Shown here: positions 3,217-60,441 of the stretch, piece after piece | Layout of the letters: each line of letters begins with the position of its first letter | How positions within the stretch are numbered: the stretch's first letter is position 1 | Source: a virus | Strand: one strand, 5' to 3' | IMG/VR virus record: IMGVR_UViG_3300017991_000004 | Span: 67,701-131,700 of that record | DNA: 64,000 nt | The notes under the pieces: model-generated | What the model saw: the letters and a program-made list of their open reading frames with translations, nothing else | Database searches by the model: none | Told to the model about the DNA's origin: nothing | Translations under genes and position numbers: made by a program

Positions 3217-3541
3217 AGAATGGTATGACGAGAATTGGAAGGCCAAAGAAACTCCTGAGTTTGTTGCCTTCTGGCTAGAGTGGTACGGCCACGAAGAAGA
3301 CTACGCCGACCCTGACGAGTATTGGATTCGTCGTGGCTTCGCGTTAGCAGGATGGATTAAACGTGACGAATGGCGCGGAAAGAAAGTTCCGAAAGGCCCC
3401 GTCGCAGGAACTTGCTGCGCCTGCGGATATTCAGGCTCGAAGTCATCCTATTGTCCCTCTCGGGAAGAGTTAGTTCACTGCGAACATTGGTGGGACGGCT
3501 CTACTAGCCGAGACAAACGCTCTGCTGGTACCAGCAGATAG
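3209..3541 (+). CDS. hypothetical protein; last 6 codons formed by the 18-bp palindrome
   Basis: GGAGA RBS; ends SAGTSR*. Confidence 0.6.
   Translation: MSKEWYDENWKAKETPEFVAFWLEWYGHEEDYADPDEYWIRRGFALAGWIKRDEWRGKKVPKGPVAGTCCACGYSGSKSSYCPSREELVHCEHWWDGSTSRDKRSAGTSR
3521..3538. repeat. 18-bp palindrome copy (exact)
   Basis: TCTGCTGGTACCAGCAGA followed by TAG. Confidence 0.95.
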
Positions 3542-5134: not shown

Positions 5135-5211
5135 AGCCCTGTAGTTCAATCGGATAGAACAACGGATTTTGGGTCCGTAGGTTCCCGGTTCGAGTCCGGG
5201 CAGGGCTTCCA
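5135..5211 (+). tRNA. tRNA with TTG anticodon (nominally Gln), CCA encoded, atypical identity elements
   Basis: AGCCCTG/CAGGGCT acceptor stem, GTTC/GAAC D-stem, ACGGA/TCCGT anticodon stem with TTTTGGG loop, CCCGG-TTCGAGT-CCGGG T-arm, T-CCA end. Confidence 0.9.
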
Positions 5212-9150: not shown

Positions 9151-9220
9151 ACAATTCCATATATGGAAACTCTCCTATCCCGAACGGGCCTTATATAGAG
9201 TACCTTTGAAGGAGACCGTC

Positions 9221-10338: not shown

Positions 10339-10733
10339 AACCTGTCAATATCCGCGTATATCTACTCTCTCTCTCTCTCTTTCTTTCTCTCTTGTGACAT
10401 GCAATCGCTTGCAGTGTGTAAATCCGGCGTGTATTCAGATACAAGTAACACATAGTCTGTAATTTCCATATATGCTAACTATCCCTCTGCGGCATTTTGC
10501 GAACAAGTAACAAGAGTCAGATGTTTACGGATGGTTTACGGATAATTTGCATATATGGAAATGGTGCTCTGAATTAGGGCATACCCAGGTGCATAATTGT
10601 CTGGTGCCCGCTGTTCTACCCCCGGTTCCTCCCCTACCCCTACCCCTCCTTGATGGTCCTGTTCCGTGGCGGCGTTTCCGGCCGCTATACGGCCCGTTCT
10701 GTAAGGCTGTTTTGGGAATAAACACACCGGCTA

Positions 10734-10751
10734 TCTGCTGGTACCAGCAGA
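10734..10751. repeat. 18-bp palindrome copy (exact; extends to 22 bp TATCTG...CAGATA)
   Basis: direct reading. Confidence 0.95.
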
Positions 10752-10838
10752 TAATTCCTGTATGCCTGTAGTGTCCGTTTCCCCTTCCAAAATACGGCGG
10801 GTTATGCGGCGTTCTACGGCCCATGTTACTCCCCTTAA

Positions 10839-10917
10839 ATAGTTGATAACGGCGATAGTTGATAACGTTGATTATGGCCTAGCGCCGGCCGTTATCAACT
10901 ATATCGTTAGCAACTAT
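10839..10917. repeat. four iteron-like 13-mers ATAGTTGATAACG (two forward, two reverse)
   Basis: 10839-10851 and 10855-10867 forward; 10890-10902 and 10905-10917 (1 mismatch) reverse. Confidence 0.85.
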
Positions 10918-11142
10918 TTATACGTTATTATGGCCGCCGCAGGCGGCCTACATCACACACGCACACGACACTATACATTTCCATATATGCAAATACGGCA
11001 CACACTCCGTAGCCCTCCAAAACGGCGCCACGCCACATACTACCCTTACACAACCCGTGTAGCCCCAATGGCTTCCATTTCCATATATGGAAACTAGACG
11101 GTATCCCGTCCCACCGTATGCACGTTCAGCGAAACGGTCCTA

Positions 11143-11222
11143 TACGTTTTCATGCCTACCCCTACGTTTTCATGCCTACCCCCTATTTTTCATACCTATC
11201 TCCTGATTCTCATACCTACTAA
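11143..11222. repeat. 20-bp tandem repeat, 4 decaying copies
   Basis: TACGTTTTCATGCCTACCCC x2, then two degenerate copies in register. Confidence 0.8.
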
Positions 11223-11398
11223 TGCGTATAGTTACTACTACTATTAGTATATGCTCTCTTACTGCCGGCTTTTTGAAAAATACTATGCCGGAAGACTTGG
11301 TGCAATCGCTTGCGGTGACGCCATAAAAATAGCGACCTGACTAAACTACAAGTCTAATCAGGCCGCCTTATGACTTACCTGACGCGGTCAGCAAGGCA

Positions 11399-12382
11399 CT
11401 ACTGGGGCTGCGTCAGTTCGTCAGCGTGGTCATTGTCAAACTCCTGGAGTCTCTTCGCGACTAGCTGGTTTTGGGCCTTGGTCAGCGACATCTGCTTGTA
11501 GTTCTCGCGGACAGCACCAATGGTGGCATGGCCTACGTCGAGGAATTTGTTCCGCAGAACTTTGGTGAGACCCAGATTGCCAATGTGCCAATCGTTTAGG
11601 CAGTCCTGCTGGGTTAAGGTCTTGCGCTCCTGGGCTTTCTTGGCCTTCTTGGGCTTGTTGAGTATTCTTTTCTCAAAAGATGTGAGAACCGGCTGGTCAT
11701 ACGTGACCTGCATGGTAGGTGTGCGTCCTAACACGCCTCTTTTATCCGGATTACACGCCCACACCTCGTTGACTCTTTTGAGCATTTCCTCAGTCAAAGT
11801 AACTTGCCAGGTTGTACCCCAGAGACCCGCGCGGGCGCGCAGGAAGGCTCTCCACCGACCGTATGCCTTGGTAGGATTGTCTTTGGGATGGCAGAGGGCA
11901 ATCCCGCGAGTCACTATTACGGGACAGCTTTTCATTTTTGCCCTTAAAAGGCAGACAGTGACAACTGGTTGCGACTTGCTGTCTCGCAGGTAGTAGAAGA
12001 ACAACTCTGCTTTTGAGGAGCTGTGGGGTGGAAGGTGCTTGTCGAGCATTTCCTGCGGAGAAGGTCTGTGACCTTTAGGATACTTCGCCTCCCACACTGT
12101 GTGGGGAGCACTCTGCTCCTCGAGGTACTGCTCGAAAGTCAGCAGTGGTAGGCGAGGCCGACGCTTGTGGCGCTCGTTTTTGCGGCGCTCTTTGTCGAAC
12201 TCTACGAGCCGCGAGAACCGCCGACGACACTGCGGACAGGCACAGCGCACGGTAACCTCTTGGCCAGGAGCGCATACTCCCATGGCAGCGAAACCAGGCG
12301 GCAGCACAGTCTTGACCAAACCGTTGCACTGGTGCTTACCTTCAGCGCAACTGTCACAAAGGATTTTAACTCTCGGAGCCAT
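11399..12382 (-). CDS. hypothetical protein: N-terminal Zn finger, C-terminal RNAP alpha-CTD-like domain
   Basis: AGGAGG RBS; DWHIGNLGLTKVLRNKFLDVGHATIGAV. Confidence 0.65.
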   Translation of the reverse strand: MAPRVKILCDSCAEGKHQCNGLVKTVLPPGFAAMGVCAPGQEVTVRCACPQCRRRFSRLVEFDKERRKNERHKRRPRLPLLTFEQYLEEQSAPHTVWEAKYPKGHRPSPQEMLDKHLPPHSSSKAELFFYYLRDSKSQPVVTVCLLRAKMKSCPVIVTRGIALCHPKDNPTKAYGRWRAFLRARAGLWGTTWQVTLTEEMLKRVNEVWACNPDKRGVLGRTPTMQVTYDQPVLTSFEKRILNKPKKAKKAQERKTLTQQDCLNDWHIGNLGLTKVLRNKFLDVGHATIGAVRENYKQMSLTKAQNQLVAKRLQEFDNDHADELTQPQ

Positions 12383-13576: not shown

Positions 13577-13594
13577 TCTGCTGGTACCAGCAGA
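13577..13594. repeat. 18-bp palindrome copy (exact), 9 nt from a 14-bp motif copy at 13554-13567
   Basis: direct reading. Confidence 0.95.
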
Positions 13595-14055: not shown

Positions 14056-14073
14056 TCTGCTGGTACCAGCAGA
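14056..14073. repeat. 18-bp palindrome copy (exact)
   Basis: lies between a terminator and a promoter. Confidence 0.95.
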
Positions 14074-14253: not shown

Positions 14254-14967
14254 TCAAGTCGTCTTGGTCTTCTTTTTCTTGCCTATCCGCTTGAGGTAGT
14301 CACGGCAGACAATGCGGAAGACTTCTTCGTCGTCTGCGGTAATGCCCTGGAAGGCTCGTTTGAGGCGATGCCACATGGCAAGGTCTTTTTCAGTCAGGGA
14401 GAACCGCAGGAAACCTTCCTGCTCCATCGGATTTGTTATCTCCCCCAGCTTCTTGTTACGCAGAGCGTCGAGGTCGAAGGAAAGCAGGTTCATGTAGCCC
14501 TCTAGGTCTTCCCGGCTGAAGGGCATCGTGGTTTCGAGGTCATCCAGCCCGTGCTTATCGACGAGCTCCTGAACCAGTTCAGCCATCTTCACATGGTCAG
14601 ACTTGAACCTCGTTTCGTTTATCTCCATCGCCATTCGCTTGGCTGTCGTAACAGGCACCTTGCCCAGGTTGAACGCAACAGCCATCTTCATTCCGGCCTC
14701 GTGGAAGGCATCGACTCGGTGGTTACCGTCCACCACTTCGAGCGTACCATCAGGCATTTCGCGAACGATGATATTCACGACCTGCTTGTTGCGTTTGATG
14801 TTGGCAGCGAGTTTCTTCGACTGCTCGTCGTCGTCTTCTTTGTAGTTCCAGGGAGCCTTCCGTAGCTTTGCTACGGGAACCAGCTGGTACTGCTCAAGGG
14901 ACGCTAGAGCGTTTACCGCTTTGCCTTTCGACTTGCTGGTTTTCTTTTTCTTTTTGGCTTTGGGCAT
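14254..14967 (-). CDS. ParB/Srx N-terminal domain protein
   Basis: LRKAPWNY...IIVRE...VVDGNHR...MEINE. Confidence 0.8.
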   Translation of the reverse strand: MPKAKKKKKTSKSKGKAVNALASLEQYQLVPVAKLRKAPWNYKEDDDEQSKKLAANIKRNKQVVNIIVREMPDGTLEVVDGNHRVDAFHEAGMKMAVAFNLGKVPVTTAKRMAMEINETRFKSDHVKMAELVQELVDKHGLDDLETTMPFSREDLEGYMNLLSFDLDALRNKKLGEITNPMEQEGFLRFSLTEKDLAMWHRLKRAFQGITADDEEVFRIVCRDYLKRIGKKKKTKTT

Positions 14968-21051: not shown

Positions 21052-21069
21052 TCTGCTGGTACCAGCAGA
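21052..21069. repeat. 18-bp palindrome copy (exact), abuts the queD stop
   Basis: direct reading. Confidence 0.95.
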
Positions 21070-25250: not shown

Positions 25251-27080
25251 TCATGACGACCTCACCAGTGACAGCACCGCCTTGGCGATATTCGCCTGGG
25301 TGCATGACACATAATGGAACCCTATAGAGTTGACCAGCGCAATCGACTCCGGGTCACCAGCATGGTTTCCGCAGATACCAAACTGCACTTCTGGATTTGT
25401 TTCCAACGCCGTCATTACGCTTAATGTAATCAACCGACCGACCCCTCTGGCGTCTAGCGACTCAAACGGGTTGTATTCTAGCACACCCAATTGCGCGTAA
25501 TTGGGCAGGTAAGTCGCGTCGTCTCGGGAGAAGGCAAAGGTGAACTGGGTTAAGTCGTTCGTGCCGTAAGACAGAAACTCGCAGTATGGCGCGACTTCGC
25601 CTGCTATCAGGCAGGCGCGAGGAGTTTCTATCATCACACCGAACTTCAGCTCCGCAGGGTCCTCACCGCAAGTCGCCCACACCCGCTCGACCAAATCGCG
25701 CAGAACGATAACCTCTCCGACCTCAGAAACAAGGGGCACCATGATGCCAACCTGGCACTCCTTTCCTGCGGCGATGTAGGCTTCCGCAATCGCTTGCACC
25801 TGCATGGCGTAGAAGTCAGAGAACAGAATCCCAAAGCGGCAACCCCTCAGCCCCATCATGGGATTCTCCTCCTCGAAGCCGGCACCAAATTCATTCAGGG
25901 GAGCGTCGAGTAATCGAATGCAGATGTAGCTGGAACCCACCGCCTCAAAGGCAGCCTTGAACAATCCCTTCGACACCTTGAGGAGTTTCGCAAGAACCTC
26001 CCTCCGGGTATGGTGCTCGTTCTTTAGAGCAGCCTTCATGTACGCAGACAGCAGAACTGTTTGGTCCTGAAACATATGCTCCGTTCGGAACAACCCGATG
26101 CCCATAGCACCAGCATCCAGCGCGGCTGTAATGGCTGACGCCGATTCTGCATTAGCGTAGACTTCCAATTCTACAAAGTCATGGGCATAGTTGAGGATTG
26201 TCCCTACCTGCTCTGACCAGGCACCTTCATCAGATTTAATCTTCAGTCCAGCCAGGTACACCTTGCCGCTGTAAGCGTCTACTGAGACGGCATCCGTATG
26301 ACTGTTGATGGCGAAAATATCCTTCTCCGACAGGCCAACTACACAGGGGATTCCTTCGCTGGCTGCAAGGAGCGCGGCGTGGCTCAACAGACCTCCGCCT
26401 GTAAGGATAACCTTTGCCTTCTTCATGTCGCCTACGTCTGCGGGCGTAGTCAACATAGCCGCGAACCGGTCATGGGCTTCGGCGACCACCAATCCTGGGT
26501 GCGCGGGTGACCCCGTACACAGGGGCTTGTACTTTTTCGGAATAATGAAGTGCTCCTGTTGCAGATTGCCAAGCTCCAGTGGAAGGCTTTTGAGTATCTT
26601 CAGGCGGTGAATCCGATTGGCGAAGTTGAGCAGTTCGCCATAGGCTTTGACCTTCGCCTTCAATGGAAGCTCCAGCGGTTCTTTGTGACAGAGGAATATG
26701 CTCCCCTTCTCCCGCTTTGCGAACACAACCTTCAACGGATAACCGGAATGATGCTCCATGCTCGACACCAGTTCTTGCATTTTGTTCGACATGGGCACCA
26801 CTACTGGCGTACCGTCTCCTAACCGCGACTTGAGGATGTCCGTCTCAACGTCCCCTTCTGCCGTGCGAGAGTTTGTCTGCAAGATGCTAGTAGTGTCAGA
26901 GGGCATCTTGTAGATAGCCTCGCCCGCCGCGACAATGCCTGCGACAACGGGGAGGTCTTTTGCTCTGGAGAGGCGAAAGGTTTTGATGGAAGAGAAGTCT
27001 TCGTAGAGGATGATGTCTTCTGACTTCTCCTCGAACTTTTTCTCCAGAGTTGTGCGCGTCAATTTCAACGGCTTAGTCAT
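25251..27080 (-). CDS. PPDK-like PEP-utilising protein (phospho-His domain plus PEP/pyruvate barrel; no ATP-grasp domain)
   Basis: GGLLSHAA, GIGLFRTEHMF, EENPMMGLRGCR, MIETPRA, SYGTNDLTQF, GICGNHAGDP. Confidence 0.85.
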   Translation of the reverse strand: MTKPLKLTRTTLEKKFEEKSEDIILYEDFSSIKTFRLSRAKDLPVVAGIVAAGEAIYKMPSDTTSILQTNSRTAEGDVETDILKSRLGDGTPVVVPMSNKMQELVSSMEHHSGYPLKVVFAKREKGSIFLCHKEPLELPLKAKVKAYGELLNFANRIHRLKILKSLPLELGNLQQEHFIIPKKYKPLCTGSPAHPGLVVAEAHDRFAAMLTTPADVGDMKKAKVILTGGGLLSHAALLAASEGIPCVVGLSEKDIFAINSHTDAVSVDAYSGKVYLAGLKIKSDEGAWSEQVGTILNYAHDFVELEVYANAESASAITAALDAGAMGIGLFRTEHMFQDQTVLLSAYMKAALKNEHHTRREVLAKLLKVSKGLFKAAFEAVGSSYICIRLLDAPLNEFGAGFEEENPMMGLRGCRFGILFSDFYAMQVQAIAEAYIAAGKECQVGIMVPLVSEVGEVIVLRDLVERVWATCGEDPAELKFGVMIETPRACLIAGEVAPYCEFLSYGTNDLTQFTFAFSRDDATYLPNYAQLGVLEYNPFESLDARGVGRLITLSVMTALETNPEVQFGICGNHAGDPESIALVNSIGFHYVSCTQANIAKAVLSLVRSS

Positions 27081-27743: not shown

Positions 27744-27778
27744 AAAAAAGCCCCGACGACTGCTCGCCGGGGCCTTTT
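27744..27778 (-). terminator. intrinsic terminator after parB
   Basis: GCCCCG..CGGGGC stem flanked by an A6 run and a T-run. Confidence 0.7.
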
Positions 27779-27789
27779 GCAGGCAGCGC

Positions 27790-28956
27790 CTACTTCTTGG
27801 TCTTGGGCTTCGACTTCTTCTTGGAAGCCTTCTTGGCGGCCTTCTTGCCGTTCTTCTTGTCGTGCGCGTTGAGCGAACCCTTCAGGGAGTCCGCGACAGG
27901 CAGGTTGAGCACGGTCAGGTAAGCGGTCATCTGTCCCCTCGCGTGCGCGAGTTCGACCTTGTCGGGTGACTTCTTCTTGGTCTCGGAGAGGATTGCCTTC
28001 TCCTGGACCTTAATGAGCTTGATGACCTGGTTGGGCGTCTTCATGTCGACCTCGGCCTCCTGGGCGCCCTTCTCCTTGACCTTCTTGCCGGTGTAGATGG
28101 CCTTCTCCGCCTTGCCCACGCCCTTCGACTTCGCCTTCTTGCCCGCTTCCGTGCGCGGCTTCGACTTGCCCTTGGCCCAGCGGATGTCGCCGTCCTTGGC
28201 CTTCTTTTCGAGCAGGTGCCGGAAGGGGTTGAGGCTCAACTTCTTCATGGCGGGCACCAACTGCTCTCGGTCCTTCGGGTGAACCCGCATGAGTTCGTGG
28301 CACTTCCCGATGGTGACCTCTCCCGGTGCGTTCTCGTCGAGCGCCGACTGCACCTTCGCGGGCAGGTCGAGCAGCCCGAGGTGGTCAGCCACCCACCGCG
28401 GGGACCGCCCGAGCGCGTTCGCCAACTTCACGTTGCTCGGGGTCTTGCCCGTCGACTTCTTCAGGAGCTTGGCAGCCCTCTGCATCACCTGAGCCTCCTG
28501 GACGACGCTCATGGGCACGCGCGCCTCATTCTCGTCGAGACCCATGTGCAGCAGTTCGTCATCCGTGCCCTCGACCGTGATGTAGGGCACCGACTTGAGC
28601 TTGGCGATTCGGGCAGCGTCGAGACGCTGGCGACCGCAGACGAGCCTCGCACCCTTCTTGGTCATGTTCAGGACGATGGGCTGGATGAGCGTGCCCAACT
28701 TCTTCACCGACTCGACGAGCTCCTTGAACTTCGCGTCGGTACGCGACACCTCCGGGCGGACGAGAATCTTGGGGTCCAGGATGACCGCCCCCGGCGCGAT
28801 GAAGCGGAAGCCCGCTTCGTTGACCTTCGCGCCCTTGATTGGCTTCCCCTTCGCGTCCTTCGCGACCTTCATGCCTTTCTTGGCGGCCTTCTTCGCCTTC
28901 TTCGCCTTCGTACCCTTCTTCGCCTTCTTCCCCTTTGCTTTTGCCTTCGCGGTCAT
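27790..28956 (-). CDS. parB: ParB/Spo0J-family protein with Lys/Ala-rich tails
   Basis: LVESVKKLG.LIQPIVL...LVCGRQRL.AA...DENEARVPMS..QEA...HTH (NVKLANALGRSPRWV); AGGAGG RBS; strongly GC3-biased codons. Confidence 0.85.
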   Translation of the reverse strand: MTAKAKAKGKKAKKGTKAKKAKKAAKKGMKVAKDAKGKPIKGAKVNEAGFRFIAPGAVILDPKILVRPEVSRTDAKFKELVESVKKLGTLIQPIVLNMTKKGARLVCGRQRLDAARIAKLKSVPYITVEGTDDELLHMGLDENEARVPMSVVQEAQVMQRAAKLLKKSTGKTPSNVKLANALGRSPRWVADHLGLLDLPAKVQSALDENAPGEVTIGKCHELMRVHPKDREQLVPAMKKLSLNPFRHLLEKKAKDGDIRWAKGKSKPRTEAGKKAKSKGVGKAEKAIYTGKKVKEKGAQEAEVDMKTPNQVIKLIKVQEKAILSETKKKSPDKVELAHARGQMTAYLTVLNLPVADSLKGSLNAHDKKNGKKAAKKASKKKSKPKTKK

Positions 28957-29206
28957 GACGACCTCCTGATAAAAGAACGAAAGAAACAACTATAACTACA
29001 AGCATATTCTATATCTACAACATCTATAGACCTACCGAAATACGCGCAAACTCTCAGATTTTCCCACTTTTTCTGGCCCTGTCATATCGGAGCGCATGGG
29101 CTAGTATGCTCACCTTCTGATGGGGGTACCCTGTCAAAATCCAGGGAGTATGGGGGGAATCTCTACCCGAATTAGGCAGGCTAGCAAAGGGCTGTTTCGC
29201 TTGAAG

Positions 29207-29323
29207 TCTGCTGGTACCAGCAGACGGCCCGTATAGCGCGTATGCGCTACTATTGCGATACCCGCTAGATTCGGCAGGTAACAGCATGATAGCCCTGGAT
29301 GAACATCTGCTGGTACCAGCAGA
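29207..29323. repeat. pair of exact 18-bp palindromes upstream of parB (29207-29224, 29306-29323)
   Basis: direct reading; starts 99 bp apart. Confidence 0.95.
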
Positions 29324-29402: not shown

Positions 29403-29435
29403 AAAAAGAAAGGGGCAGGGTTACCCCTGCCCCTT
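29403..29435 (-). terminator. intrinsic terminator
   Basis: AAGGGGCAGGG/CCCTGCCCCTT stem with A-run. Confidence 0.75.
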
Positions 29436-29457: not shown

Positions 29458-29994
29458 CTAGTCGAGGTCGGCGAGCGCCTTCTTGACCTTCTTGATTTCG
29501 GCGTCGGTCAGCTTGGTCTTTTTCTTGAAAGCCGCCGTCTTCTTGACGCCCTTCTTGACTTCCCCGATAGCCTCGATACCGGCCTTCTCCAGCTTGTTCT
29601 TGATGGACTTGGTCAGACCGAGGTTGTCGATGTGATACTCGTCCCAATCTTCCTGGGCCTCTTCTTCCTCCTCTTCTTCCTCCTCTTCTTCCTCTTCTTC
29701 CTCCTCTTCTTCCTCTTCCTCTTCCTCTTCCTCTTCTTCCTCTTCCTCTTCTTCCTCTTCTTCCTCGGGCTCCTCTTCCTCCTCCTCTTCCTCAGTCTCT
29801 TCCTCTTCCTCTTCCGGCTCCTCTTCCTCCTCGTCGTCTTCAGGGGCGCCGACGTTGATGTTCACGTCGACATCCCCCGGCACGACGACCGGCGTGAGAT
29901 TCCGGCGGCGCATCTCCTCCAGCAACTCTTCGAGAGTCAGGCTGGCGAGGTCTGCACCCTTCTTCTTGGTTCCCTTCTTGGTCTTCTTGGCCAT
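29458..29994 (-). CDS. poly-Glu protein with C-terminal RNAP alpha-CTD-like domain
   Basis: about 60-residue acidic tract, then HIDNLGLTKSIKNKLEKAGIEAIGEV; AGGAG RBS. Confidence 0.75.
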   Translation of the reverse strand: MAKKTKKGTKKKGADLASLTLEELLEEMRRRNLTPVVVPGDVDVNINVGAPEDDEEEEEPEEEEEETEEEEEEEEPEEEEEEEEEEEEEEEEEEEEEEEEEEEEEEEEEEEEAQEDWDEYHIDNLGLTKSIKNKLEKAGIEAIGEVKKGVKKTAAFKKKTKLTDAEIKKVKKALADLD

Positions 29995-30061: not shown

Positions 30062-30661
30062 TTACTTCTTCGACTTCTTTTTCTTTGCCGCCTTCTTTTT
30101 CTTTTTGCTAGCCTTCTCCGCGGCCTGCTCCTCCCACACCTCTTCGGATTTGGGGTTGTCAGGTTGCGCCTTCATTTTCTCGGTCCCCTGGTAGGCTTCG
30201 AGGAGAGCGTCCACCTTCTTGTCGAGTTCAGCCTCGTCAGCCTTGATAGCCTTCGACATCATAACCTTCTGTTCCTTGCTCTGTGGCAGTTTGATTGTGA
30301 ACCGAGGCGACCTGCCTGCGGAGAGAACCTTAGAGAAGTCCCGGTCCTCGAAGGCGCGAGAAAGGAAGACCTGCTTCTCCTTGTTGACCGTAGCACCGGC
30401 CAGCAGGGCTGCCATTGTTCGCACATCGAAGTGCTCCATCACCTCCTTCGGTGTCGAAGGCATCTTGATGGAAGTGGACTGCGAGAAAAGGGCGTTCCCG
30501 CCGTTGGCTCCGTCCAGGTTCACGATGCCTTCATCCTCCATGCTCTTTTGCAGAGAGGCTGACAGCGCTGCGGTTGCCTTTTCGTACTCTTTGACAACTG
30601 CTCGCCGGAGCAGTATCTTGTCGAGCAACGCGCGTAGCTTCACTTCTTTTTTGCTGCCCAT
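30062..30661 (-). CDS. hypothetical protein with Lys-rich tail
   Basis: AAGGAG RBS. Confidence 0.7.
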   Translation of the reverse strand: MGSKKEVKLRALLDKILLRRAVVKEYEKATAALSASLQKSMEDEGIVNLDGANGGNALFSQSTSIKMPSTPKEVMEHFDVRTMAALLAGATVNKEKQVFLSRAFEDRDFSKVLSAGRSPRFTIKLPQSKEQKVMMSKAIKADEAELDKKVDALLEAYQGTEKMKAQPDNPKSEEVWEEQAAEKASKKKKKAAKKKKSKK

Positions 30662-31151: not shown

Positions 31152-31670
31152 TTAAATGTCGCCTGCGGCTTGTGCGGCTAGAATTAACGCAGCCGCATCG
31201 ACGATGTGATTGCGTTCACTGTCGGGAAGTTGCGCCCAAAGCGGAGAGGGCCACCTGCGGCGCACGGCAAGTTCCATCAACTCCTTGGATGCGTGTATGT
31301 CGCCTGTCGCAGTTTTCTTATTTCGCTCGGGGGTATAGTAGACCATCGGTTTTCCGTAAGCAGTCGCCCACCCAATGACTGTGCCGCTGACCTGACTCAA
31401 CATTTTCACCGCCCGGAAACTCTGACCGCCGTGCGGCAACTCCAAGAAGACTTTCTCCGGCTTGTGCTTCTTGTTGAACTTGGTAAGGAACTTTGCGACC
31501 TGCTCCATGAACTCTGCGTCAGCTTTCGACGCTCCTAATGCCGCTTTTGCAGTCGCGTAGTCCTTGGGGTCCGACAACAGAGCGCCGTGGTCTTGAATAC
31601 TGTTGCCGACCGCATCGTAGATAACTACACCCAGCGCCCGAAAACCAGGGTCTATGAATATGTGACTCAT
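31152..31670 (-). CDS. ruvC: RuvC-like Holliday junction resolvase
   Basis: FIDPGF..LG, FLE, K...TG...ASKE.M, H..DAA. Confidence 0.8.
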   Translation of the reverse strand: MSHIFIDPGFRALGVVIYDAVGNSIQDHGALLSDPKDYATAKAALGASKADAEFMEQVAKFLTKFNKKHKPEKVFLELPHGGQSFRAVKMLSQVSGTVIGWATAYGKPMVYYTPERNKKTATGDIHASKELMELAVRRRWPSPLWAQLPDSERNHIVDAAALILAAQAAGDI

Positions 31671-31688
31671 TTGCAGGCACCAGCAGAC

Positions 31689-32930
31689 CTACTTCTGCCA
31701 AGGGTTAACCAACTTACCTTTCACCCGATGGCGAGGTTTGCTTTCCTTCAAATTGGCCAGGGCGCGTACCATCGACTCCCGCTTCGGCAGTTTTGCTCTG
31801 CGCCGCTCAACCTCTTTCAGTGTCGCCTGTCGAACCACCAGCTTGTGCCGACAGTTGGTTAAACAGGGAGTCGCCCCGCTCCGGGGTACTGCGGGTAGTG
31901 TATCCTTGGTGAACGGTTGCCGCTCGACGATGTAGGCGCACCCTCGACAGATGCCCTTCTCGCCAGGTTTCGGACCGAACCAGTAAAACAGCAAGTTATT
32001 CGGCATCCCGCTTACCCTACCGTTCTCAAAAACAGCCTGCAACCCCTCGAGGTACATCGCCAGGCGTTCTTCTACAGTGTAGCGGCGTTGAGGCGGCCGC
32101 ACGGTTGCTTGGTCCGTAGCCAGGTCATCCTTGAACGGAACATCACCTGCTTTGACTTCCTTGAGGAAACTCTGCCAGAACTGCAACTCTTCGCGCGTAG
32201 CAGAGCGTAGCCATTCCTTCTCTTTGCGCGTGGGGTTGGCTTCAGGAACGTACAGGTCAAGCCCGCTAGCCTTTCGCCCCGCTTCCCAGATACGCGCGTA
32301 AAAGTGCTCGAAGAAGTCAGCCGAATCACGTTGGAGTTCTGCAAAAGACTTGGAGCCGTCGTGAAACTGCCGAAGCATTCTCCGTAGCTCTGTCTTTGCT
32401 TCCTTTGCCAACCGCTCGTACTGTTTCATCCCTTGAGTCTTCTGCGTACGAAGGTTTCGCTGGTAGTTCGGGCTCGACTTGAGACGCGAAAGGAAAACGC
32501 TGTCACGGGTTCCTGTGCGGGCCTGGGAGGACCCTATAGCCTTGCCTTCACGCAGCGTGCAAAGGCGCATGTCAACCAGCCAGGTATCAAAGTCCCGCAA
32601 TAGCCGGGGCAGGTTTGTGTCGTGGAGCAAGTTTGAGAACGGTTCCTCTACCGAAGAGATGCCGGCGTCGTCTTTGTGAAACCAATAGGTTCCATCGAGT
32701 TCAACAATACCTGACCGTCTGCTGGTACCAGCAGACTCTACCTGCGTCGAAGGGAAGAGTTTTAAGTATGCAATCGCCCGACCAAAATTTTTCGTCAACT
32801 TCTCTTTGAAGGCATTGAAGTGCGCGAGGCTCATTTCCGCGTATTCCCAAGTGCTAGTCGGGAAGAACACACGGGTCACCCATCGGTCGGCATCGTAGTC
32901 GTATTGAATGTTCGGGGTCCGTTTAGCCAT
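31689..32930 (-). CDS. putative head morphogenesis (Mu gpF/SPP1 gp7-like) protein
   Basis: C-terminal C..C...P.SG...CLTNCRH; next to portal. Confidence 0.55.
   Translation of the reverse strand: MAKRTPNIQYDYDADRWVTRVFFPTSTWEYAEMSLAHFNAFKEKLTKNFGRAIAYLKLFPSTQVESAGTSRRSGIVELDGTYWFHKDDAGISSVEEPFSNLLHDTNLPRLLRDFDTWLVDMRLCTLREGKAIGSSQARTGTRDSVFLSRLKSSPNYQRNLRTQKTQGMKQYERLAKEAKTELRRMLRQFHDGSKSFAELQRDSADFFEHFYARIWEAGRKASGLDLYVPEANPTRKEKEWLRSATREELQFWQSFLKEVKAGDVPFKDDLATDQATVRPPQRRYTVEERLAMYLEGLQAVFENGRVSGMPNNLLFYWFGPKPGEKGICRGCAYIVERQPFTKDTLPAVPRSGATPCLTNCRHKLVVRQATLKEVERRRAKLPKRESMVRALANLKESKPRHRVKGKLVNPWQK
32718..32735. repeat. 18-bp palindrome copy (exact), intragenic
   Basis: encodes SAGTSR inside 31689..32930. 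Confidence 0.95.
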
Positions 32931-33108: not shown

Positions 33109-33375
33109 TCATGACTGCCTCATTTTGTTCAAAAAAGACCTGGCGGCACGGAAATGGATGACGTTCGCAGGTTTCGGCTTGCAGCCGTTCAGAGGTTTGC
33201 CCCGTGGCGCGACTACACCTCGTTGGAATCGGCCGATGTTTCGCATGTGGATGTCGTGCCCGGCGATAAGGTTTCGCTGGAGAACATCCGCAAGGGCCTG
33301 CATTACTCGCTTGGCTTCTTTGCGAGGAATGCGGGCTTCCAGCGACAGCTCGATTATCAAGTCCTGGTACTTCAT
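33109..33375 (-). CDS. HU/IHF-like DNA-binding protein
   Basis: MKYQDLI..L......KEA.......L..G..I....IG.F......R........PA.....FRA.... Confidence 0.75.
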   Translation of the reverse strand: MKYQDLIIELSLEARIPRKEAKRVMQALADVLQRNLIAGHDIHMRNIGRFQRGVVAPRGKPLNGCKPKPANVIHFRAARSFLNKMRQS

Positions 33376-42086: not shown

Positions 42087-42104
42087 TCTGCTGGTACCCG
42101 CAGA
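42087..42104. repeat. 18-bp palindrome copy (17/18), abuts the recA stop
   Basis: TCTGCTGGTACCCGCAGA. Confidence 0.9.
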
Positions 42105-43614: not shown

Positions 43615-43632
43615 TCTGCTGGTACCAGCAGA
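43615..43632. repeat. 18-bp palindrome copy (exact), abuts a stop codon
   Basis: direct reading. Confidence 0.95.
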
Positions 43633-58848: not shown

Positions 58849-60441
58849 CTAACCTCCCCATGCCACGTTAGCCAGGTCGTAATCAGTCAACTCGATATAA
58901 CCGATAACGCACATGGCGAACAACGCACTGTTAAGAATGGTGACTGTGAGATTGACCTTACGAGTCGCGTCAAGTTGCAACCAGAACCCGTCGTAATTGT
59001 GGTCTTCATCTCCAGACACAGTGGCTTCGTTGTAAATCTCTTTGATGAAGGCATCACAGTTAGCGCACTGCTCGAAAATACCCATGTTATTGCTAGTGTT
59101 CCACTCTAGTTCAGCGTTAACTGTTGAAGGACCGCCATCCTCCTGGGCCATAGAGTATGTATTGACAAAGGCACACATCGCAATGGGCGATACATGCTCT
59201 GACATATCAATCGCTGTAGTGACCAAGTTTGCAGTCCAAAGCAAGTCTTCCGCGTGCCCTGCACAATTACCCGTGGCTCCTTTGCTCTTTCCGCTGCCCG
59301 TGGGCTGAATCTTCTGAACGTAGTTGTCGTACTTGACCATCGGAACGGCTTTGGGCGTAGCGCTCCCGTCACCTTCGATGCAAGTGACAAGACGCCATAC
59401 AGTGTAAACATCTGCGCCGCCGGTAAACGCCGGGTCGGTCAGTCCAGGCCCCACAGTGGGGTCATTCGTGGAATACACCAGCGCAACCGCACCGGTGTTC
59501 GGCGCACCAATCGCGTAGGCATATAACCAACCGTTCTGGAAATTGACTTGCAGTGCGTCAGTGTCGTCGGCTCCGCCTGGCCCGATATTGTTTCCAGTAC
59601 CTCCTGCATCCACAGGAAATAACGTGAGCAACTCTGCCACTGACGGGTCAATGTCAAACCAAAATGTCGCATCGTTCCACGCCCGACCTTGAAACTGGTG
59701 TAACAGCCAATTGTAGTTGTTGTTGTTCGGAAGAACTGTCTGGTCGCGACACGCGAAGAGGCAAGTCGTAGACCGGGCGTGCGGTGTAGCCAGAGACGCC
59801 TGCGCTGCTGCACTGAGCTTGTGAATATGGTCCCGCCGCGAGTACACAAACAACGACCCTGGCGATTCTCCGCTGAGTTCGACGTCTTCCGGGTTCACCC
59901 CATCAACGTTGGGAACGTGCTGGTGGTCGATAGGGACACGATTCCAGTTCGTGCCTAGTACAGCTACTGCACCCGCAGTGTTGTCCGACTGAATTGAGCC
60001 CACTACGCCGCGCTGGAGATTGTTCATGTAGGCGCGAATGAGCGTAATGTCGGTGACAATGACGACTACACCACCTGCTTCGTCCACCTGCACCCAGGCA
60101 AGCGGAAAAACGGTAGCTGCCGTGAAAGGAGACCCGTTGCCCGGAGCCCCTGTGTAATCGGCGACAGGAGTGATTTGCTCCGCACCGGCCTCGACCTGTG
60201 CAACTCCCTGGTCGTCCAAGTACACCAAGTCCCACCGAACTCGCCCTGCCCCACTCACAGCTCCGAATGGTCCTGCGGTCTGAGCAGCCTTTTGATACAC
60301 CTGACCGTCAGAATGGTTTGTGAAAAACCCTGCTCCGACGTTCACCAGGTTGTCAGCAGGAGCCCGTTCTGTTACCTCGAAACCATCGAGGTCCGGCCCT
60401 AGAGTGACCTGTCTTTTCTGAAGTTGCGGAGGTGATGCCAT
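58849..60441 (-). CDS. virion structural protein (tail fibre-like)
   Basis: G/A/T/N-rich; R.DLVY.D..G; YSRRDH.H motif; tail context. Confidence 0.6.
   Translation of the reverse strand: MASPPQLQKRQVTLGPDLDGFEVTERAPADNLVNVGAGFFTNHSDGQVYQKAAQTAGPFGAVSGAGRVRWDLVYLDDQGVAQVEAGAEQITPVADYTGAPGNGSPFTAATVFPLAWVQVDEAGGVVVIVTDITLIRAYMNNLQRGVVGSIQSDNTAGAVAVLGTNWNRVPIDHQHVPNVDGVNPEDVELSGESPGSLFVYSRRDHIHKLSAAAQASLATPHARSTTCLFACRDQTVLPNNNNYNWLLHQFQGRAWNDATFWFDIDPSVAELLTLFPVDAGGTGNNIGPGGADDTDALQVNFQNGWLYAYAIGAPNTGAVALVYSTNDPTVGPGLTDPAFTGGADVYTVWRLVTCIEGDGSATPKAVPMVKYDNYVQKIQPTGSGKSKGATGNCAGHAEDLLWTANLVTTAIDMSEHVSPIAMCAFVNTYSMAQEDGGPSTVNAELEWNTSNNMGIFEQCANCDAFIKEIYNEATVSGDEDHNYDGFWLQLDATRKVNLTVTILNSALFAMCVIGYIELTDYDLANVAWGG

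Follow-up and report, generated by a model that had tools for sequence, protein, structure and literature searches.

A 64,000-nucleotide stretch of viral DNA (IMG/VR record IMGVR_UViG_3300017991_000004, positions 67,701 to 131,700; hereafter the window) encodes a phage ParB-family helix-turn-helix (HTH) protein for which no ParA partner was found, and an 18-20-bp palindrome repeated along the same DNA is most likely this protein's own docking site, the counterpart of the parS, NBS and OB sites of known ParB-family proteins. We give this reading a probability of roughly 55%. The window comprises 64 kb of a 131,719-bp contig, the remaining half of which lies outside the analysis, and its genes for a T4-type portal, terminase, family-A polymerase, helicase, UvsX-like recombinase and RuvC mark it as phage DNA. 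The gene for the ParB-family protein, parB, and the elements around it are as follows, in window coordinates.

27790 to 28956, minus strand: parB, encoding a 388-amino-acid ParB/Spo0J-family protein (open reading frame [ORF] with ATG start; Pfam, TIGR00180, profile and fold matches)
28528 to 28746, minus strand: ParB N-terminal CTPase-fold domain with GRQR, and DENEAR just after it (Pfam residues 71-143; Spo0J alignment)
28246 to 28443, minus strand: ParB-type HTH DNA-binding domain (Pfam HTH_ParB residues 172-237; 6y93 fold match)
28816 to 28956, minus strand: N-terminal Lys/Ala-rich tail, residues 1-47 (Lys count, low pLDDT [score of the predicted local distance difference test])
27793 to 27864, minus strand: C-terminal Lys-rich tail, residues 365-388 (Lys count, low pLDDT)
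27745 to 27778, minus strand: terminator-like hairpin and T run after parB (hairpin scan)
28989 to 29017, minus strand: predicted sigma-70-type parB promoter, TAGATA-17-TATAGT (consensus scan)
29410 to 29435, minus strand: terminator-like hairpin of the gene upstream of parB (hairpin scan)

The 388-amino-acid product is a genuine ParB-family HTH protein. Pfam recognised ParB_N (PF02195) at residues 71-143 (2.8e-9, 37.4 bits versus a cut-off of 26.3) and HTH_ParB (PF17762) at residues 172-237 (5.9e-6, 26.8 bits versus a cut-off of 22.6), while the KorB domain (PF08535) scored just under its cut-off (22.1 versus 22.3 bits). Among NCBIfam models, the whole protein exceeded the partition model TIGR00180 (71.7 bits versus a cut-off of 58.45) and came nowhere near the Noc model TIGR04285 (64.9 bits versus a cut-off of 315), indicating that it is not a Noc. 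A profile built from the nine closest homologues matched solved structures of Spo0J/ParB (1.1e-17), Noc and KorB (8qa8, 1.7e-4) in the PDB, and placed GRQR opposite the GERR box of Spo0J and DENEAR (ENEAR) opposite ENLQR. The AlphaFold2 model of the protein (mean pLDDT 71.5) found its best Foldseek matches in CDP- or CTP-bound ParB (E 2.6e-11), Noc and KorB structures, the HTH giving its best local match to the Noc DNA-binding domain 6y93 (TM 0.80, rmsd 2.2); the C-terminal part is modelled as a family-specific three-helix region. Across an alignment of nine members of the ParB clade, G108, R111, N143 and R146 are invariant, Ala replaces the Glu of ENxxR in one member, and the HTH is the most conserved region, with 26 of 90 positions invariant.

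The initial annotation, made from the sequence alone, had described a full ParB with N-domain, GRQR box, DENEAR and HTH, on which Pfam, TIGR00180 and the Spo0J alignment now agree. Its account of long K/A-rich ends, strongly biased codons and a standalone unit held up equally well. Lys makes up 20 of the first 45 residues and 14 of the last 30, AlphaFold2 predicts disorder at the ends (pLDDT <50 for residues 1-31, 373-376 and 380-388), and terminator-like hairpins stand on both sides of the gene. G+C content at third codon positions (GC3) is 0.90 in parB, the highest in the window, compared to 0.53-0.77 in 40 other ORFs, and 97% of its 77 Lys codons are AAG. In relatives, too, parB has the highest GC3 (0.93 and 0.96, with 0.62 where the contig itself has 43% GC), a pattern that would fit an abundant protein. 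By eye, the relative L017 has a similar TATAGT box ahead of the ribosome-binding site (RBS). The tails themselves vary: the C-terminal one has no invariant column among aligned members, and the N-terminal one is short or missing in most relatives.

We then considered the palindrome, TCTGCTGGTACCAGCAGA, which occurs 19 times in the window (14 exact copies and five with one to three mismatches) versus 0.02 expected from 100 shuffles. Its density in the window clade is about one per 3.4 kb, and a motif scan placed the copies, which carry no strand, as follows.

929 to 946: palindrome with one mismatch at the central base
3521 to 3538: palindrome followed by TAG, 20 nt before the next ATG
10734 to 10751: palindrome within a 1.2-kb repeat-rich non-coding region
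13577 to 13594: palindrome
14056 to 14073: palindrome, 180 bp past the stop of a second ParB-fold gene
21052 to 21069: palindrome abutting a stop codon; kept in L016
24889 to 24906: palindrome, 15 nt ahead of a start codon
27096 to 27113: palindrome with one mismatch, between a stop codon (0 nt away) and an RBS/ATG (15 nt away)
29207 to 29224: exact palindrome, about 190 bp upstream of the predicted parB promoter
29306 to 29323: exact palindrome, 99 bp from the copy at 29207 and about 290 bp upstream of the parB promoter
31670 to 31687: degenerate palindrome with three mismatches, not kept in relatives
32718 to 32735: palindrome; kept in contig 000428
38566 to 38583: palindrome; orthologous copy in contig 000428 has one mismatch
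42087 to 42104: palindrome with one mismatch, abutting the stop of the UvsX-like gene
43615 to 43632: palindrome abutting a stop codon
46548 to 46565: palindrome; kept in L003
51566 to 51583: palindrome with one mismatch, abutting a stop codon; kept in L002, L006 and L010
55258 to 55275: palindrome; kept in L002 and L005
61345 to 61362: palindrome abutting a stop codon; kept in L010

By our own count, most copies have a purine next to their 5' end and a pyrimidine next to their 3' end, extending the motif to a 20-bp dyad, (R)TCTGCTGGTACCAGCAGA(Y). Copies are always full dyads, the half-site TCTGCTGG appearing three times outside them versus 2.6 expected; GGTACC, CAGCAG and half-sites outside the copies all occur at or near expected numbers, and we rejected restriction-site avoidance and half-site scatter as explanations on that ground. 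Most of the long intergenic gaps of the window contain a palindrome, and the spacing of copies is mildly more even than random (coefficient of variation 0.64 versus 0.95, P = 0.024, uncorrected for the restriction of the sites to intergenic DNA). Among the 19 copies, the closest pair is the one upstream of parB (99 bp start to start), as had been noticed at the outset.

The exact 18-mer was also found in 13 stretches from eleven IMG/VR contigs. Nine of the 13 stretches (L002, L003, L005-L007 and L009-L012) share 64-70% DNA identity with the window over long matches. Nine window sites have flanks that can be recognised in these relatives, and at eight of them the orthologous junction holds a palindrome, the exception being the three-mismatch copy at 31670. 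Relatives ranging from 43% to 66% GC carry the identical 18-mer. These comparisons support strong conservation of the palindrome as a cis-element across this phage group. Its many identical intergenic copies could also be read as a selfish or domesticated mobile palindrome, similar to repetitive extragenic palindromic (REP) sequences or miniature inverted-repeat transposable elements (MITEs), that has spread through intergenic DNA. However, mobility of this kind is hardly credible given the orthologous positions in diverged relatives, flanks that show no pattern of target-site duplication, and the absence of the palindrome from bacterial genomes beyond chance. A search of 185,579 species genomes, bacterial and archaeal, yielded 10 scattered single matches to the 18-mer, all in unrelated genomes, compared to a chance expectation that we estimate at about 9 for an 18-mer palindrome in 596 billion bases. 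We therefore rejected a host element, and the paucity of matches argues that the reader of the palindrome is encoded by the phage rather than by the host. The ParB clade is similarly confined, with nine proteins at 51-65% identity before a drop to 33% (chromosomal ParBs) and no relative among the same 185,579 genomes. GenBank contained no close phage with a DNA match to the window, and the only tblastn matches were weak ones, to records from Listeria, Staphylococcus and Hydrogenophilus.

A HMMER scan of 1.84 billion representatives returned four further members of the ParB family (P0030-P0033, 33-45% identity). A P0032-type ParB, about 33% identical, is encoded in two IMG/VR records, G001 (116 kb, 85% complete) and G002 (131,295 bp with terminal repeats, 100% complete), and the order of genes around parB is the same in these deep relatives as in the window (RuvC-like, small gene, Lys-tailed protein, acidic protein, ParB, pyruvate phosphate dikinase [PPDK]-like protein). 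The window-type palindrome is absent from G001 and G002 even when one mismatch is allowed. A second dyad, CTGTCG-GTAG-CGACAG, occurs in G001 (six exact copies and one near copy) and in G002 (seven exact and two near) and is absent from the window; the reversed control pattern gave no match. Between the two dyads, each arm shows the same two-base difference (CTGCTG versus CTGTCG). Three of the nine G002 sites show a stop-palindrome-RBS-ATG layout, and only three flanking proteins of G002 sites have homologues in the window, limiting cross-clade comparison of positions. Co-variation between the palindrome and ParB, which the initial annotation had proposed to look for among relatives, is thus seen insofar as the palindrome changes with the ParB lineage, in a comparison of two clades.

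Where ENxxR has EN, the deep-clade ParBs show FDLS or FDLN; these proteins may no longer hydrolyse nucleotide, while the HTH and the palindromes are retained. Because the E and N of this box are gone in the deeper clade, and only 6 of 14 family members have marked Lys-rich tails (at one end or both), neither of these can be essential to the core function of the family. One part of G001 (L037, G001:C1, positions 384-1424) holds four variant palindromes within 1.1 kb, flanked by A and T runs. The copies extend to a dyad of about 30 bp, TGAACGACTGTCG...CGACAGTCGTTCA, and together form a centromere-like or origin-like cluster that the window clade does not show.

The palindrome is also found beside parB. 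At least one copy lies upstream of the gene in all six genomes in which the gap is visible, with two copies in the window and in contig 000428 and one each in L015, L017, G001 and G002. The distance to a -35-like box is 7-26 bp in L015, G001 and G002, and 190-300 bp in the window, 000428 and L017. We consider that this apparent link carries moderate weight. Among 78 ORFs of the window, Pfam identified no family of sequence-specific DNA-binding proteins besides ParB, with only an HU-like protein and zinc-ribbon domains found. The earlier proposal that this ParB binds the 18-mer is consistent with the conserved palindrome, its clade-specific variant, the copy upstream of parB in six of six genomes and the sole HTH candidate, all of which is comparative support.

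Several observations weigh against this assignment. Sites in the window clade are so dense that copies upstream of parB are expected by chance, and by our own arithmetic the chance that one of the nine intergenic sites of G002 would fall in the parB gap of about 190 bp is approximately 0.11. With only two palindrome types to compare, any diverged phage protein would co-vary with them, and the G002 site at 60272, a cross-clade junction at which conservation could be tested, is not conserved in the window. In the protein, GRQR keeps the G and the last R of GERR but has Gln for the second Arg, and deep-clade ParBs (P0031, P0032 and that of G002) have GY[NQ]R for GERR and no EN of ENxxR, which makes a CTP switch uncertain. 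The C-terminal dimerisation domain PF23552 is not among the precomputed Pfam entries for this ParB (only PF17762 and PF02195 are), whereas the chromosomal ParB matches do carry it. The placement of copies between stop codon and RBS and a predicted hairpin of -11 to -14 kcal/mol would also fit an element acting at the RNA level. Lastly, half of the 131.7-kb contig is unseen and many ORFs are unannotated, leaving room for another reader.

A different phage-encoded dimeric regulator, either small and unannotated or encoded in the unseen half of the contig, could read the palindrome, in which case ParB would have another target or none. Most window ORFs lack a family match, only 64 of 131.7 kb is visible, and the density of sites makes parB-proximal copies unsurprising in the window clade; Cluster O mycobacteriophages likewise have more than 30 dyad repeats, for which the available part of the source names no known reader (PMC4351075). 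However, the 78 ORFs include no other sequence-specific DNA-binding family, and the parB-upstream copy persists in the deep clade, where each genome has only 7-9 sites. We regard such a regulator as rather unlikely, and favor ParB as the probable reader.

The position of the palindrome relative to genes bears on whether it acts as DNA or as RNA. According to crude ORF calls, six copies directly abut a stop codon, the next ATG lies 11-26 nt away and is preceded by a GGAGG-like box wherever a gene follows, and one or two copies possibly fall within ORFs. We rejected a promoter, since the distance from most copies to the next ATG is just 11-26 nt and the motif is symmetric; the separate and clearly sigma-70-like repeated promoter of the deep clade (family D1) also counts against one. 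As RNA, the palindrome would fold into a 7-8-bp hairpin (-11.4 to -13.7 kcal/mol) with modest fold z-scores (-1.7 to -2.9). It could therefore be an intercistronic hairpin in operons, serving as an RNase target, mRNA stabiliser or terminator, with an incidental link to parB. This fits both the layout of the copies, which recurs in G002, and the A and T runs that often flank the palindromes of clade B in the manner of bidirectional terminators. In contrast, window-clade copies lack a T run, no Rfam family matched, and further copies lie upstream of the predicted parB promoter and in the non-coding repeat-rich region. Constraint on structure alone would allow the sequence to drift, yet it is identical from 43% to 66% GC. 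Among 13 variant copies from the window and its relatives, 10 have uncompensated stem changes, two differ at the centre only and one is compensated, a pattern better tolerated by a dimeric protein site than by a 7-bp RNA stem. An RNA-level element is improbable in light of these data.

To place ParB relative to partition systems, we looked for a ParA partner. The ParA-type Walker A motif, KGGxGK[ST], is missing from all six reading frames of the window, in agreement with the initial annotation, which had seen no parA there and suggested a search of the rest of the genome. PF13614 and PF01656 had no match in G001 or in the complete 131-kb relative G002, while 14 of 14 control genomes were positive; the search thus reached a complete relative, the other half of the window's own contig being outside its scope. 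The complete relative also has no tyrosine integrase. We conclude that a ParB without a ParA partner is supported in G002. Dispersed sites could still be scattered centromeres, as N15 is reported to have, with ParB forming the centromere-binding half of a plasmid-prophage partition system whose parA lies elsewhere. TIGR00180 is passed and half of the contig is unseen, but the lack of a Walker motif in the window, of PF13614 and PF01656 in G001 and G002, of a tyrosine integrase and of any ParB relative in 185,579 species genomes makes such a system very improbable. Additionally, 0 of 14 family members carry [LFI]G[KR]G[LFI], which a 2025 survey gives as the N-terminal motif for ParA binding (PMC12704722).

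ParB-family clamps serve chromosome and plasmid segregation and have given rise to a few derived regulators (Noc, KorB, VirB and BisD). The phage protein resembles ParB-parS systems such as that of Spo0J in its fold, HTH, box motifs, TIGR00180 score and a palindrome in or near parB, and differs from them in having no ParA, no ParA-binding motif and no PF23552 on record, and in its sites, which are unrelated to parS in sequence and spread genome-wide rather than clustered. Noc of Firmicutes is a chromosomal, partner-less ParB paralogue that works from many dispersed palindromic NBS sites without ParA, tethers DNA to the membrane by an N-terminal amphipathic helix and blocks division. The phage protein is likewise a ParA-less ParB-type protein with dispersed palindromes, and Noc 6y93 is its best local fold match; unlike Noc, it has a Lys/Ala-rich tail as its N-terminus and does not reach TIGR04285. 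KorB reportedly has 12 OB sites. In the part of the source available, KorB of the IncP-1 plasmid RK2 is a CTP-gated sliding clamp used for regulation, with OB operators near and far from promoters (PMC11790492). Similarities to KorB as described there include a ParB-family HTH protein with several dispersed palindromic sites, proximal and distal to promoters, clamping being plausible but uncertain here, as well as the fold match to the KorB structure and the KorB domain score just below threshold. KorB partners with IncC (a ParA) and the clamp-locking KorA, whereas no ParA was found for the phage ParB and no KorA-like protein is known for it, no search aimed at one having been made; the phage site is an unrelated 18-20-bp sequence with many more copies, mostly at gene junctions, in a large phage without sign of lysogeny. 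Among working systems the nearest analogue is KorB-OB, and among those lacking ParA it is Noc-NBS; the phage protein scores below the model cut-offs of both KorB and Noc.

Among phages, Cluster O mycobacteriophages carry a 17-bp dyad repeat in more than 30 invariant copies, about one-third of them inside genes, and encode a ParB-like gp90; the authors predict a dimeric DNA-binding reader and, in the part of the paper available, do not connect the repeat to the ParB-like protein (PMC4351075). As far as that part extends, they share with our phage the lack of integrase or parAB, a dispersed dyad repeat with many intergenic copies and a ParB-fold gene, although the lineages are unrelated. By Pfam, Corndog gp90 has ParB_N but no HTH, and the six repeats in 7 kb around its gene are too dense to be informative. 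Stoperators of Cluster A mycobacteriophages are described in the accessible sections as asymmetric, transcription-oriented sites of a monomeric immunity repressor in temperate phages (PMC9283540, PMC4351075). Like the window palindrome, they occur in many copies in short intergenic gaps throughout a phage genome, where, in the same sections, they act on transcription elongation; the window palindrome is symmetric and its phage shows no sign of lysogeny.

A further comparison concerns phage ParBs without an HTH, which in the available part of a preprint activate DNA-modifying enzymes, namely thymidine dioxygenases (bioRxiv 10.1101/2025.08.14.668559). The window also encodes such a protein, the second ParB-fold protein (237 aa, 14254-14967, minus strand), with DGNHR and INETR motifs, Lys-rich ends on both sides and no HTH match. 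Its gene ends a 7-deazaguanine cluster (GTP cyclohydrolase I, a radical-S-adenosylmethionine QueE-like protein, PTPS/QueD, a glycosyltransferase and a P-loop protein), a setting that resembles the activators as far as the preprint was accessible, while the parB product differs from them in keeping its HTH and in not being adjacent to a modification enzyme. In the window and in both deep relatives, a palindrome lies within a few hundred bp past the stop codon of this gene; G001 and G002 encode weak homologues of the protein and lack FolE. Two weak ParB_N matches elsewhere (L055 and L056) have no repeated palindromes and are uninformative. The 2025 survey reports that partner-less ParBs are common and that phages carry ParB-fold proteins and fusions, and its available part assigns no DNA targets to the phage proteins (PMC12704722). 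We found no description of a partner-less phage ParB with dispersed genome-wide sites in the literature searched, supplements being outside its coverage.

We infer the role of ParB as the reader, its nucleotide dependence, its sliding and every downstream effect. In the mechanism that we propose, ParB dimers would recognise the palindrome through the HTH domain. The window clade keeps GxxR and ENxxR, and its ParB probably closes into nucleotide-gated clamps that move onto flanking DNA; nucleotide-gated clamping in this clade is plausible from the residues kept. From at least 19 junction sites per 64 kb, ParB could occupy the whole phage chromosome, with the Lys-rich tails potentially adding non-specific DNA affinity. 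The protein may autoregulate its promoter by way of the two upstream palindromes, may modulate transcription through gene junctions in the manner of KorB or a stoperator repressor, and/or may gather phage DNA into a ParB-bound body. Most sites show the stop-palindrome-RBS-ATG layout, which suits transcriptional regulation of the KorB or stoperator kind no less well than a 'nucleoid' role, and transcriptional control at junctions, autoregulation, compaction and shielding would all be equally compatible with the results. A more specific version, in which the palindromes, more evenly spread than by chance, serve as loading stations for a ParB clamp that acts with the HTH-less ParB-fold proteins and covers the chromosome without ParA, collecting replicating phage DNA in a ParB-bound compartment or carrying DNA-modifying enzymes along it, is distinctly doubtful. 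Bearing on it are the 7-deazaguanine cluster and about one site per 3.4 kb in the window clade, the lack of FolE and the 7-9 sites per genome in the deep clade, and the Lys-rich ends and nearby palindrome of the HTH-less proteins.

Other features of the window accompany parB and the palindrome. A second dispersed motif, GCAATCGCTTGC, has 10 exact copies versus 0.34 expected (952, 1850, 10401, 11302, 13555, 25786, 31138, 38403, 45643 and 55986); those at 952 and 13555 lie between a palindrome and the next start codon, and in G001 and G002 the parB promoter has a resembling box, GCAATCG, at its -35 position. Positions 10340-11400 form a 1.2-kb non-coding region at a switch in gene orientation, containing four TTCCATATATGGAA-like palindromes (a fifth is at 9155), iteron-like direct repeats, inverted TAGTTGATAAC, a (CT)n run and one 18-mer, so that the region resembles a replication origin. 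Immediately upstream of parB, a gene (29458-29994, minus strand) specifies a protein whose N-terminus is Lys-rich, followed by an approximately 60-residue Glu run (43% D+E overall) and a helix-hairpin-helix-like C-terminus; the next gene (30062-30661, minus strand) encodes a Lys-rich C-terminal tail, and both are syntenic to parB in G001. On the other side, a 609-aa PPDK-like protein of the phosphoenolpyruvate-utilising enzyme type without a recognisable nucleotide-binding domain (25251-27080, minus strand) keeps its adjacency to parB in G001 and G002. The HU-like protein (88 aa, Bac_DNA_binding, 1.5e-7; 33109-33375, minus strand) is encoded beside the portal gene, and there is one tRNA gene (5135-5208, plus strand; Rfam RF00005, 65.7 bits).

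For one lineage of phage ParB, these results provide a candidate target set; two clades with two palindromes form a natural specificity pair, which makes the claim directly testable by a binding swap. If the assignment is correct, large phages without sign of lysogeny would run a plasmid-style ParB-operator network genome-wide, which would bear on the organisation, timing or shielding of phage DNA during infection. Dyad repeats that lack an explanation, including the Cluster O mycobacteriophage repeats, would then also gain a possible reader.

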